Source: Candidatus Zixiibacteriota bacterium (GTDB taxonomy: Bacteria > Zixibacteria > MSB-5A5 > UBA10806 > 4484-95). From it: a stretch of DNA of 64,000 bases. The position numbers were made by a program. The stretch covers positions 57,059 to 121,058 of the forward strand of contig JAOZPT010000001.1 in NCBI GenBank assembly GCA_029932605.1, in the 5' to 3' direction. Below are positions 54,001-63,000 of this stretch, in pieces; position 1 is the stretch's first letter; each line of letters opens with the position of its first letter.

Positions 54001-57000
54001 TTTAACAAGTGGCGAAGATTTATGCATTATCAATAAGGATTTCATGCTTCTAAATCATACACTTTCACCGGAAATATATAACAAATTTTATAATTTTTTG
54101 CTTATGGTTTCTCAGGTATGTTACAATTCAGTTGAGGTGAAGGTTGAGTAGAGGTAAAGAGAGAGGGAAGTTAACAAACGGATATCTTTTTAAGGCGATT
54201 GTCATTTTATTCTGGTCTACCGTTGTTTACAGCCAGACTTTACCTACTCTTCTGGAGATGCTGGCTTTATATCCAGAGCAAGATGCGATCTATATTGATA
54301 TAAAGGACAGCACAGCTGTTAATTTTAAGGATAACGTTTATGTCTATAATCGATTTTTTCATTCGGAGGCTATGGTTTTGCGAAAAGGTGGGGGCGGTAT
54401 CTCAAGCTCTGCTAGCCCGGTGCTATCAGAGCGCGATAAAATAGAGGTTAGCGCTTTTACCATTACCCCAGAGGGAGATACAATTACTGTTCCAGAGGAG
54501 GAGATAACGGCCCTCCAGCTTCATGGGAATAAGAGAAGATATGTGGTATCTTTTCCTGATGACCGTGCTGGAGCTGTTTTTGTTTTTGACTGGAGCATCC
54601 AGTCGGCCGAACCGGTGTTTTCGGGAAGGAGATACCTGGGAAGGACATATCCGGTTTACCATAATAAAACTATTATTTCAGCCCCTGCTAATTGGGTGTT
54701 TAATTTTGTTGTCAGACCATCATGTCTTTATGAGCATCATAGTTCTAATACTTATACTCATGGTGAAGAACTATGGTTAAACAATATCTGGGAGGTTAGG
54801 GCGTTACCTGGTTTAATATTCGAGGATGATGGTCCTCCTGTTTCGCAACTTATTCCATGTCTGTATTATGCTTTTTCCCATGATAAGAGTTGGTCTAACA
54901 TAGAAAAGAATAAAGTTGATTGGTGCATGATAGCATCATCATACAGAAACCATCTGGAATCTTTAAAACGGCCAAGCCAGATGATAAAAAGAGATGTTAA
55001 AGCTATTTGCCAGGGAGTTTATAGTAAGCGGGAAAAAATACGTAAGATAATAGAGTTCGTCACTACTAGTTTTCGGGCTGTTTATTCAGATATCGACATT
55101 TCCGAGGCACCCGATGAACTTCTTAGCAGGGGTTCTGGTTCGCAAGCTGAAGCTTCTTTTCTTTTGGGAGCCTTTTTGAGAGAGGCAAATATTCCCTTTG
55201 ATTGTATATTAATCTCGACCAGGGACAATGGAGAATTTATAAAGGCTCTTCCGGCGTTGTTTTATTTTAATCGGCTTTTAGTTGCGGCACGAATCGATAA
55301 TGATACGATATGGATTGACCCGTTGTATCGGGGTGCTCCTCTGGGTGTGTTGCCGTTTGAGGACCAGGCGGTTGACGGTATCGTTGTAAAAGATAATTTT
55401 AAAGATTTTATCACTACACCTGTTTCCGATTACAGGGAAAACGGTCATGCCGTACATTTAAAGATATCTTTTAATGAAGATGGCGATTTAATTGCTGAGG
55501 GGATAGAGCTGTTGTCGGGTTCCTTGAATATCGAGGAAAAGAGTGTCCTTCAAGGATTGACATCGCAGGAGAAGTATGAACGTTGGGCTAATATGACATC
55601 AAACGGTTTGCCAGGTTCATCATTAGAGGAGCTGGATTTTTCTGATATATATTCGGATATAAATCCGTTCAAAATAATTTACAAGCTTGTAGCACCTGAA
55701 TATCTTAACCCGAAGGATACGAGGCTATATATTCCTCTGGATATACTTGGCAGATGGCGGATTTCTAAAAATTATAATAATAGAAAACTGCCCATAGAAC
55801 TTGGGCGCCCACATTTTCAACAGGAAAGGATAACTATCGAGATACCTCAAGGATTCAAAGTTGAATATCTTCCTGATAATTTTACTCTTACAAGTTATCT
55901 CGGAGAAATATTTTCAGTGGTGGTTGTTACCGCCAATACTATAACGATAACTCGTGGCCTAGGTATCAAACCATATCGGCTTAAAATCAGTGCTGCTGGA
56001 AGCCTAAATGGTTTTTACAGCAAAGCGATGGATCAGGCGGGGAAATATATAGTTTTAAGGAGATAGTATGCCGGAATTGCCGGAGGTTGAAACCATAGCC
56101 CGAGATTTGGCTTTTGCGTTGGAAGGGCAGAAAGTCAGGAAAATGAGATTGCTTGACCCAGTTATCCGTGAAAAAGGGGATTACCAATCGCCGAATATCC
56201 TTGAGAGAAAACGCCTTTTGGGGATCGAGCGTCGTGGGAAAAATCTTATATTTCATTTTTCTGGAAACATAGCGATGGTGTGCCATTTAATGATGACAGG
56301 GCGTATGATTTTGGATTCTGAACATGGATTAAAAAAAAGATATTTACGTTTTTTCATAGAGTTTGAGAGGTCGAGACTTGATTATTTTGATGTCAGAAAA
56401 TTTGGGCGAATCTCTTTTTTGAAAGAAGAAAACGTAAAAAACCATCCTCGCTTGAAAAAATTAGGGCGTGAGCCATTCTCAATAAACTCAGAACAGTTCG
56501 CTCGTATTGTAAAAAAAAGGTCCAAAGCCATAAAACTTATCTTGCTTGACCAGGAGATCATATGCGGTCTGGGTAATATTTATGCTGATGAGTCTTTATT
56601 TGATGCGGGTATAAGGCCAACCCTGCGGCCAGATAGAATATCTGTATCTAGATTGAAACATCTTCATAAATCTATTAAAAAGATTCTTAGAAAAGCCATA
56701 CGAAAACGAGGAAGTTCTGTCGATGATTACATTGATGGTTTCGGCAGAGCCGGTAGGTTTCAAAATATGCTTAGCGTTTATGGTCGAACAGGTAAAGCAT
56801 GCAAGAAGTGCCAGACATTGATAAAACGGATGGTTCTTGGCGGGAGGTCAACTCACTTTTGTCCGAAATGCCAGAAGTAAAGAAAAAATATAAACTTGCT
56901 TTGGCTCTTGGTGGTGGTGGTGCACGAGGGCTTGCCCATATCGGTGTTTTAAAGGTTTTGGAAAGAGAGAAGGTCGATATTGATTTGATCGTTGGCACAT

Positions 57001-60000: not shown

Positions 60001-63000
60001 ACAACCCGAACCGTATTTATCTACAATTTTATGTATTTTCTGGATAACTTCGGGGTGATTGGTCAAACCAAGATAGTTGTTTGAACCAATCATAATCACT
60101 TTTTTACCATCAACAATAACCTCGGTGCCAGGTGCTGATGATATTTCGCGAAAATAAGGGTAGTAACCTGATTTCTGAACATCTCGGGCAGTAGTAAAAT
60201 TATAACACTTATTGAAAAGGCTCATGTGTTTCTCCGATAATATGGGGTAGCTCCCTGAGGTGGAACAACTTTTACCTTAAGATTTAAAATCATTTTTAAA
60301 ATATTATCTTCTTTTTATAAAATGTCAAGATGTAATTGTTCGTTAGTTTCTTAAAAACTATTTGCCATAACCTCCAACTTTTTTCTTGTTTCTATATGGA
60401 TAATCTACCATGAACTTCACATAGAAATATTGAACAAACTTTTTGAGTATCCAAGAGGGTTTATTTGAAAAAAGTAAATATCACCTACCTATGTTAATCC
60501 TGCTATTGATGTTCCATATGATATTACCTTTTCTTGCCCTCTTCTTTTCCTATCGATTTAATCTTGAGAAGATAGGTATTATCTGTATCCAGGGCGATTT
60601 TGTGTATTTTATCTGATGGTTGGTTGTTTTTCATTGGCGTCACTCCCTGATTTTGGGAGACCTCACTTTGGTTGTTTATGGCTTAACGTAATCATCTTTT
60701 CTTTGATCTTATCAAAACCTTAAAGAAATTCCACATGGGGACTTTTTCCATATAATCTTTATAAAGTTTTCCAAATTTTTTTATATTGTATCCGGCTTCT
60801 TTTCTTGCTGATGTCCAAAAACACAAGATAGATAACGTACCTAAAGTCATTGAAAGAATTGACTGGAAAACCATGATTAAGGCTACAGACCAGATACTCA
60901 TTCCCAGTGTCATTGGTTGACGAATGATGCTATATATTCCGCTGTCAAGAAAAGTGGTTGTGGCTGTGGGGTCTTTGGCCTTTGGTTTACCTTTATGTTT
61001 TAAAGCGTGCATTGATGCCGCAACTAAATAGGCTGAAGGGATATAAAGGATGAAACCGATAACCCGTATCAAAAAGATATCAAATAGCTTCAATGTTACG
61101 GTGTTACCAAGGGTTAATTCAATAACTAACAGGGTGAAAAAAATGCCTAAACCTGTGTGTATGTAAATTTCGCTAACCACATGTTTCCTGACAGCGTGGA
61201 TTAACCATCTTCCATTGATTATCCATATGAGGCTACAGATGGTTACACAGATTATATAAGCCCAGATTTCTGTCATGACTTATTCCTCTGACAGACTGCT
61301 TTGTAGTAATTTGGAATTGGTGATCTTGACAGTTCTGCTACCACATCCCACTTCCAGGAAGTTTTGCCTTTCTTTCGCATTTGCATAGTGCAATAATTTT
61401 TCGGTAATATTGATCACTCGTTTTTCGTGTTTTAGTCTATTCATAGACCATTTTTCAATATTAATCATTTTCATTATTTAGACTTCCTCCGGATATTACT
61501 TTTTCCCTTTCAAAAGGTATATACGGCGTATTTATGATTAATTCAATAGCGAAAAAGGGGCATTGATTATCCTTTCAATACCCCAATATAGTTTTTTGAA
61601 CGTTTTATAATTGCACTTAAATTTTTCTGTTGGTCTCACTCCTTCGGTAAAGTAGCCGGTGTTTGATGTATATTTCTGCTGAGAACTGCATAACCTGCCG
61701 GTGGTGTCTGCGGACACCAGAGAATGGAAGCGTTGTAGCCTTTGAAGAAAGCCACAAGGTAGGTTACATCAGAACCGGTAAACTGGCAGTTGCCGTTGAC
61801 ATCGCCGGCGGAGTATAACCAGCTCGAGGTGGAATCGTTCCAGCAGGAATCTGGTGGTGGATCACCAAGACCTTTGAAATAGCGAACACCGAATGTTACA
61901 TCGTTACCCATGACATTGTCATCGCCATTGACATCACCTGGAACAAAATCGCATCCCGCTATGAAACACAGTTCACTGAAATTCTCGTTAAGCATGTAAT
62001 AACCTATTCCGGTAGTATCGCGAGCGAAAGTTCTATCCATAAATAACTCAGGGTTTAAACCCGGTCCGAAACACTGAACTGTATCGCCGATCAGACCAGG
62101 GTTGTCAACCGACACGACGACAAATGTAAGTATTCTTGTTGGTGTATCGAAGTATAACCATGGATTTGGAGGACCGGATGGATTAGCGTAACCCACGAAT
62201 GATTGACTTGACCAACCCTCCGGGTTCGGTGGATGGCCGAAAGGATCTGTCCAGAGAGCTATCTCCCAATCCGTTATCGGATAGTAAAATTCGCCCTCTA
62301 TGTCACTGATAAGGTCGGCAATGTATTGGTCATAGGCGCCAAGACAGACATGCAGATCGGCTATATAAGCGCCCTCGAAACACTGAATATACACATCTAC
62401 ATTTATATTACTATTTGGAGAACCGGAAATCGGTGAACCATCTACGTTACCGTACCAGAGCGAAGCAAAAGAGAAACTGCGGTTGCTTACAGCGGATGTA
62501 TCATTGCTATTGTTGAGGTCGCCCTCGAGGACTGTGTACGAAACAAATTCAAAGGTTGTATCTACAGTGGGTGTAAAAGTCCTGGAGAATGTAACTGTAT
62601 CCACGCCATTGGGCATATCAATGATTGTGAAAGTGTCGGCAACCTCGGCTGATGATGAACCTGAGGTATAGACCTCGTAGATGACATCAAAAGTTTGTGT
62701 CTCGGTTCCATAGTTGGAAACTTCGGATTTAAGCGAATATTCAAGGCCGTTAAACATTGTATCTGGCATGTCAAGGATTGCTGAAACTCCAACATCCGAG
62801 TCATAGATTGTGCTGAGAATTAAGGTGCACGGTATGTCCTCATCCTGATGATTGGGGTCGTTGCTCTGGAGATTGATGTTGCCGGTATATGTACCCTCAC
62901 TTAACATCGAGGCATCAAAGGTGATAGTAACATCTAAGCTATCATGTGGATTGACCGTACCGGATGCTGGGAAAGCTGACAGCCAGTCTGTGTAGAATGC

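Follow-up and report, generated by a model that had tools for sequence, protein, structure and literature searches.

The window, a stretch of 64,000 nucleotides from the genome of a Candidatus Zixiibacteriota bacterium, carries two neighbouring genes predicted to build the backbone of a ceramide. The names of homologues also point to Zixibacteria. The features of the locus are listed below, with positions counted from the first nucleotide of the window.

59044..60225, minus strand: spt, predicted serine palmitoyltransferase of the Bacteroidota type (393 aa; PLP lysine K241)
59015..59043, minus strand: spacer between spt and bcerS (29 bp), with a G-rich ribosome-binding site
57887..59014, minus strand: bcerS, YghO/bCerS-family tandem-GNAT N-acyltransferase (375 aa; TTG start)
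60300..60328, minus strand: sigma70-like promoter candidate, about 75 bp upstream of spt, with 10/12 consensus matches
56868..57839, plus strand: patatin-like phospholipase (PF01734), convergent to bcerS and the final gene of a transglutaminase-like/mutM run

The preliminary description placed spt directly beside bcerS, and the two open reading frames indeed lie 29 bp apart on the minus strand. Because this spacer is short and contains a G-rich ribosome-binding site, the pair is inferred to form one operon; in the 98 relatives with an adjacent pair, the gap ranges from 7 to 227 bp. The promoter candidate is by itself not above chance, since the scan for sigma70-like sites returned 14 in the real sequence versus 10.2 ± 3.9 in shuffles. 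The patatin gene had been described as a downstream part of the ceramide operon, a placement that is no longer tenable: it is read from the plus strand towards bcerS, shares 13 bp with mutM as the closing gene of another operon, and therefore falls outside the spt-bcerS operon. Of the 39 spt/bcerS loci that were mapped, only 2 have it next to bcerS.

The Spt of the window is nearer to characterised Spt than to Kbl, BioF, HemA, or cysteate fatty acyltransferase (CFAT) in comparisons against the PDB and NCBIfam. Its top PDB match is the Spt of Sphingobacterium multivorum (SmSPT; PDB 3A2B/8GUH) at 472 bits, followed at a distance by Kbl (281 bits) and cysteate acyltransferases (252–258 bits); an identity to the Sphingobacterium enzyme previously put at 54% came to 53% on realignment (204 of 385 aligned columns, without gaps). 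The top NCBIfam model is the Spt-CFB equivalog NF047600, with a score of 590 bits that stays under the cut-off of 640. At 31 of 34 listed Spt positions the window protein matches SmSPT, and the three that deviate are Ser53, Ala79, and Met271 of SmSPT, which are replaced by Asn, Thr, and Ile. All eight PLP- and serine-pocket residues of SmSPT (His138, Asp210, His213, Lys244, Asn52, Ser81, Asn117, and Ala274) are kept. Kbl and a BioF-like enzyme are encoded in the source genome by genes apart from spt.

The full-length identities given earlier for the window bCerS, 35% to Caulobacter bCerS and 38% to Escherichia coli YghO, were both reproduced. The window and Caulobacter proteins are reciprocal best hits, and the bCerS profile matches no other Caulobacter protein. 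There is no curated model for bCerS, and searches of Pfam, NCBIfam, and PDB sequences returned no match; the predicted structure (pLDDT 91, as against 36 for a single-sequence prediction) has tandem GNATs as its top Foldseek matches, with a TM of about 0.6. An identity of 35% does not fix the acceptor, and N-acylation of a sphingoid base is the predicted activity. Together, the rank and pocket of Spt and the reciprocal match of bCerS support the earlier proposal that the two enzymes would synthesise a ceramide-type backbone.

A second paralogue, bCerS2 (g01928, C85:68537-69646), has an MMPL transporter on one side and a patatin, on the other; both had already been noted as neighbours, and the protein is 44% identical to the window bCerS. 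In a phylogenetic tree, the window bCerS clusters with proteins of its own family of genomes (hereafter the host family) and of the sister family; bCerS2 stands on a long branch outside this group, which rules out a recent duplication of the window gene. bCerS2 is present in 2 of the 23 genomes of the host order. Of 80 metagenome loci, 6 have patatins flanking relatives of bCerS2, and a looser link between patatins and bCerS may thus exist outside the operon.

The claim that both genes are kept throughout the phylum holds in a larger sample of 120 Zixibacteria genomes other than the source genome. Each of the 120 encodes spt (58%–81% identical, one partial), and 119 encode bcerS. The two genes are adjacent in 98 genomes, within 3 kb of each other in 7, on separate contigs in 13, and 25 kb apart in 1, with bcerS missing from the remaining genome. 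With both genes kept almost everywhere, ceramide-type lipids are probably a core part of the membrane in this uncultured phylum, and Zixibacteria may contribute sphingolipids to anoxic sediments and waters.

The third enzyme of the known pathway, the ketoreductase CerR, is distributed differently. Its orthologue in the phylum is a reductase (SDR) other than g01429, about 30% identical to Caulobacter CerR and its reciprocal best hit (162 versus 85 bits). It was found in 115 of 117 Zixibacteria genomes outside the host family; in 45 genomes from 13 families, it is divergent from spt, and it shares its orientation with a class V PLP enzyme to which it is linked in 95 of the 106 genomes having both. 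Profile scores place true CerRs (160–190 bits) no closer than two SDRs of the source genome (154–166 bits), and it is reciprocal hits and synteny that support the assignment as CerR. Sequence searches recovered the orthologue from none of the 10 genomes of the host family, versus all 13 of the sister family. The source assembly comprises 101 contigs, and both an unfiltered six-frame search of it and a leave-family-out control agree on the absence. The linked class V PLP enzyme is likewise missing from all 10 host-family genomes; as far as sequence searches show, this family has lost both genes.

The reading best able to account for these data, and one in which we place considerable confidence, is that spt and bcerS form a two-gene operon, inherited vertically, for a ceramide backbone and that CerR has been lost from the host family. 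In the first step, a soluble Spt would form 3-ketosphinganine by condensing L-serine and a long-chain acyl thioester, an activity for which the required residues are in place. The acyl donor is probably acyl-CoA, since neither AcpR nor a close AasR homologue was found. By orthology to its Caulobacter counterpart, bCerS would then N-acylate 3-ketosphinganine to 3-keto-dihydroceramide. Most Zixibacteria would reduce the ketone with the CerR orthologue, whose gene was ancestrally divergent from spt and co-oriented with that of the class V PLP enzyme. Because this orthologue is missing, the host family would either stop at 3-keto-dihydroceramide or reduce it with a stand-in. Oxidised ceramide accumulates in Caulobacter that has no cerR. 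If the first two steps proceed as proposed, reduction by a stand-in is somewhat the more likely end point, and a lipid left in the 3-keto form has a substantial if smaller chance.

The best candidate for such a stand-in is an OleD-like SDR (C87:38004-39002 of the source genome) that is restricted to the host order. An SDR on contig C45 was also considered and set aside: among four Zixibacteria genomes tested, it had a close match only in one (G062), where the gene is frameshifted. With regard to a route through a BT_0972-type 3-ketosphinganine reductase, the source genome has three classical SDRs, namely a FabG-like enzyme, one that we take to be FabL-like, and one present in 7 of the 10 family genomes.

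More tentatively, the host family could be a lineage that naturally does without cerR and has 3-keto-dihydroceramide as the mature sphingolipid of its membranes or, in a milder form, one in which CerR was displaced by an OleD-like SDR that the order had gained; we consider this proposal rather unlikely as it stands. Were it true, a compound so far treated mainly as an intermediate or mutant product would be a mature lipid, and the class V PLP enzyme lost along with CerR would belong, so far unrecognised, to the reduced-ceramide branch; in the milder form, the OleD-like SDR would represent a third type of sphingolipid ketoreductase in bacteria. Molecular formula does not distinguish a ketone from a double bond, and for this reason the ceramides with 'one double-bond-equivalent' in anoxic waters, which make up a median of 46% of Cer structures, could in part be keto lipids under the keto reading. 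The words 'keto' and 'oxidized' are absent from the main text of the study describing those ceramides.

According to one alternative, the spt-linked SDR and the class V PLP enzyme form a tailoring or recycling module whose loss has no bearing on the ketone, and reduction in all Zixibacteria falls to a reductase not yet recognised. The SDR keeps closer company with the PLP enzyme than with spt (45 of 115 genomes) and has limited identity to CerR, both of which suit such a module. However, it is the reciprocal best hit of CerR, and 13 of 80 metagenome loci carry a similar SDR close to spt and bcerS, which makes this reading improbable.

The preliminary description instead pointed to g01429, an NDUFA9-like reductase taken here, from gene spacing, as C64:35242-36141; on this account, ordinary dihydroceramide would be made by the full three-enzyme pathway. 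Caulobacter and E. coli CerR both pick g01429 as their best match in the source genome, and an SDR tree places it within the CerR group, but on a long branch. It fails the reciprocal test, as its best Caulobacter match is another gene (138 bits versus 45 for CerR), of which it is the orthologue. Furthermore, 12 of 13 sister-family genomes have it in addition to the spt-linked reductase, it lies downstream of rho, and 3 of 10 host-family genomes, one of them a 10-contig assembly, gave no match to it. g01429 was hence dropped as CerR, and there is little to recommend this account.

It is equally hard to sustain that the pair makes a different amino-lipid, with bCerS N-acylating either a cysteate-derived sulfonolipid or a base that is 1-deoxy or derived from glycine. 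The cysteate fatty acyltransferases SulA and CapB (PDB 7U7H, 28EH) are related to Spt and have the alpha-oxoamine synthase fold and PLP lysine in common with it; SmSPT is reported to accept Ala and Gly too, 1-deoxyceramides are abundant in anoxic water, and specificity is not set by pocket residues alone. Against this, the window Spt scores about half as many bits to the cysteate enzymes as to SmSPT and carries none of their diagnostic pocket residues: it has Ser78, Phe111, Asn114, Ser240, and Ala271 at sites where they differ, and, on a mapping inferred from the text of the published description, Ala82, Tyr115, Ala249, and Lys280 are absent and Asn117 is present. Bit scores and pocket thus disfavour a sulfonolipid. 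A Sphingomonas-type sphingolipid that replaces LPS is ruled out by LpxC, encoded in 120 of 121 Zixibacteria genomes, the source genome included; judged from LpxC alone, the sphingolipid would accompany lipid A. COX1 was not found in the source genome, and on this one result an anaerobic lifestyle can be weakly suggested.

Among known systems, that of Caulobacter crescentus (Spt CCNA_01220, bCerS CCNA_01212, and CerR CCNA_01222; PMC11087976, PMC11324152) shares 39% full-length identity in Spt in addition to the bCerS likeness given above. Its cerS is described as always lying in a separate operon, whereas the window has spt and bcerS in one, and it possesses the CerR that the host family lacks. 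Searches of the source genome with the Caulobacter set returned no match for any tested head-group gene and only one LptF/G-like match. The Rhodobacteria-type AasR-AcpR-Spt arrangement was not found either: there was no ACP match, and ligase matches (22%–30%) lie elsewhere in the genome. The E. coli BL21(DE3) locus of yghO, acyl-AMP ligase, SDR, ACP, and spt (NC_012971) encodes an Spt 38% identical to that of the window, but also a ligase, reductase, ACP, and LptF/G paralogues, all of which the window locus lacks.

A parallel in arrangement is clade B of the Spt-like genes described from 38 Black Sea phyla, in which anoxic-water bacteria combine Spt with a co-localised bCerS (PMC11334938). 'Zixi' is absent from the main text of that paper, whose Fig. 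3B or supplement may list the phylum, from that of its preprint, and from the supplements of PMC12619533; a literature search by titles gave nothing on sphingolipids in Zixibacteria, and supplements of genome surveys may already include the phylum. Predictions of this pathway already cover about 40 phyla; the window pair itself is an instance of it, and its near-universal presence in the sampled Zixibacteria is an extension. The core enzymes have been stated to occur in all bacterial sphingolipid makers, to which a family-wide loss of CerR would be an exception; a lineage with Spt and bCerS but without CerR fits acylation before reduction and bears on the disputed order of these steps. The loss in the host family is a modest, testable variant of the known ceramide pathway.

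The spt and bcerS genes lie in tandem, with a patatin gene on the opposite strand beyond bcerS:

59044-60225, minus strand: spt, open reading frame of 393 aa
57887-59014, minus strand: bcerS, open reading frame of 375 aa with a TTG start, 29 bp downstream of spt
56868-57839, plus strand: patatin gene, overlapping mutM by 13 bp and ending 47 bp from the bcerS stop

The TTG start of bcerS is backed by 375-aa orthologues, and a promoter-like site 75 bp upstream of spt does not, taken alone, rise above chance. The patatin lipase, which the preliminary description had placed in the operon as its downstream member, falls outside it: the gene closes a run on the opposite strand, and of the 39 spt/bcerS loci mapped (38 fetched ones and the window itself, excluding two second-cluster loci, the Caulobacter loci, and contig C85 of the same genome) 2 have it beside bcerS. 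Given its strand and this rarity, the operon consists of two genes.

The gene at 59044-60225 is, judged by its sequence, spt. The closest solved relative of its product is Sphingobacterium Spt (472 bits, gap-free, 204/385 identical), compared with 331 bits for Sphingomonas-type Spt, 281 for Kbl, and 252-258 for cysteate acyltransferases; among NCBIfam models the one for Bacteroidota Spt ranks first, its 590 bits falling short of the cut-off of 640. The same genome holds two further alpha-oxoamine synthases, a Kbl encoded next to tdh and a BioF-like protein. Of the 34 positions compared, a set that includes Arg367, window Spt is identical at 31. These positions derive mostly from the accessible text of PMC10196870, with Ser140 and Met239 mapped from a paper on the cysteate enzyme. 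The residues that the available part of PMC13692747 lists as differing in cysteate enzymes are, by mapping, all serine-type in window Spt, and the pocket is nearly invariant among aligned Zixibacteria copies; the same source cautions that specificity is not set by pocket residues alone.

The gene at 57887-59014 is an orthologue of bCerS. Its product has no match among curated families (Pfam, NCBIfam) or solved (PDB) sequences; its full-length identities, 35% with Caulobacter vibrioides bCerS and 38% with E. coli YghO (these two are 44% identical to each other), reproduce the earlier figures from fetched references. The profile of this protein finds a single match in each of two Caulobacter genomes, namely the bCerS gene, and its predicted structure, modelled with confidence (pLDDT 91), resembles tandem GNAT acyltransferases.

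The claim that the pair is kept throughout the phylum holds in a larger sample, such conservation being expected. Of 120 other genomes, every one has spt (58%-81% identity, one copy partial) and 119 have bcerS. The two genes are neighbours in 98 genomes and no more than 3 kb apart in 7; in 13 they fall on separate contigs, and in 1 they are distant from each other. The window's own family has them together in all 10 genomes. The named homologues are Zixibacteria, and window bCerS groups with its own family first and then with the sister family of the same order, as expected under vertical descent. The lipid is probably present alongside lipid A, since LpxC occurs in 120 of 121 genomes.

Several other features were seen around these loci. 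An isoprenylcysteine/phospholipid methyltransferase-like gene (60692-61276, minus strand) lies 466 bp upstream of spt, a place it does not occupy in mapped relatives. At 43383-52285, related uncharacterised membrane proteins recur in sets (four types, at least two copies each) upstream of two DUF3857/transglutaminase-like genes; in relatives, such sets also lie close to the pair. In 11 mapped loci, bcerS is directly followed by a gene for a lipoprotein-like product of about 180 aa that matches no Pfam family (L091:5360-5896 and orthologues). In one genome, G122, a single 731-aa frame (L289:3514-5709) joins Spt 1-336 to bCerS 34-375; as Spt Arg364 is absent, this more likely reflects an assembly fault or deletion than a working fusion.

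Neighbourhood mapping revealed an extended SDR divergent from spt (45 genomes, 13 families), about 30% identical over its full length to CerR, the reductase of the Caulobacter ceramide pathway (E down to 1e-41); CerR and an E. coli SDR are 34% identical. The best Caulobacter match of the SDR profile is CerR (162 versus 85 bits), and the best match of CerR is the spt-linked SDR in both SDR-bearing Zixibacteria tested. Counting against this reading is the SDR tree, which did not resolve; true CerRs score only 160-190 bits on the profile, similar to two paralogues in the window's genome. Reciprocity and synteny nonetheless point to the spt-linked SDR as the phylum's putative CerR orthologue. Outside the own family, 115 of 117 genomes carry it (several partial at contig ends), the two exceptions being fragmented assemblies; all 13 sister-family genomes have it, at 365-505 bits. 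In the 10 own-family genomes, two of which are assembled into 10 contigs each, it was not found (highest score 177 bits), nor did an unfiltered six-frame search of the window's genome find it; a profile built without the sister-family rows scores those rows at 364-384 bits versus at most 166 for that genome. Of the 106 genomes that have both the SDR and a class V PLP enzyme, 95 encode the latter directly after the former. The PLP enzyme is likewise absent from all 10 own-family genomes, and from 11 of the 117 others. This uncharacterised companion (L076:9158-10312 and orthologues, alignment A2) has no curated family above cut-off for the member shown; in several families, a protein of about 135 aa without a Pfam match (L102:4587-4988 and similar) lies between the two.

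Spt would condense serine with acyl-CoA to 3-ketosphinganine, which bCerS would N-acylate to 3-keto-dihydroceramide. Acyl-CoA is the presumed donor because the Spt is Bacteroidota-type (PMC11324152, available part) and reference comparisons with the window's genome found neither AcpR nor a close AasR. The Caulobacter head-group genes tested gave no matches. According to the accessible text of PMC11087976, 3-keto-dihydroceramide builds up in Caulobacter without cerR; quite possibly, the own family likewise stops there. Somewhat likelier, a stand-in enzyme would reduce it. For this role the earlier choice, g01429 (taken from gene spacing as C64:35242-36141), does not hold up as CerR: it is the top match of CerR in the genome, but its own best Caulobacter match is another gene (138 versus 45 bits). 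Of the 13 sister genomes, 12 have it in addition to the spt-linked SDR; in the own family, 7 of 10 genomes have it. The better candidate is:

C87:38004-39002: OleD-like SDR, whose best NCBIfam model, OleD, is below cut-off

This gene is kept in 10 of 10 own-family genomes (59%-76%) and is found in this order alone (8 of 121 genomes); its sole Caulobacter match at E 1e-8 is CerR, a weak one, and it is unlinked to spt. A plausible course for the stand-in is displacement, the C87 SDR being gained in the order and CerR then lost in one family.

The second bCerS paralogue was rightly placed beside a patatin and an MMPL transporter, both lying in its run on C85. It is 44% identical to the first. The run (TetR-MMPL-bCerS2-patatin-LolA-like-DUF1302-radical SAM; L001:5967-15282, L296, L211) has a gene nearby that we take to be IS-like. 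bCerS2 occurs in 2 of 23 order genomes, with the same gene run in both, and in one metagenome locus a comparable run includes an spt of its own as well as a PAP2 enzyme; we infer that the run was acquired as a module and serves in lipid transport or remodelling. A second cluster in G023 and G074 (L110:5455-13145, L111:6009-13680), possibly an amino-lipid tailoring system, encodes a TPR protein, a divergent bCerS-like protein, a B12 radical SAM protein, a FemAB-like GNAT, and a radical SAM fusion that joins a B12 radical SAM to an alpha-oxoamine-synthase domain, its PLP lysine apparently absent in the alignment.

Our literature search found no report on Zixibacteria sphingolipids. The accessible text of PMC11334938 describes Spt-like genes in 38 phyla, some without a nearby bCerS or CerR, and does not name Zixibacteria, its figure and supplement lying outside this check. 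The available part of PMC11765627 describes 3-keto-sphingolipids as overlooked yet not rare, and other accessible text discusses a BT_0972 reductase route that runs in parallel. The Spt-bCerS operon is a real, well-supported instance of the known pathway, and the sole part new to specialists is that the whole family has lost CerR together with its PLP partner, which is directly testable.
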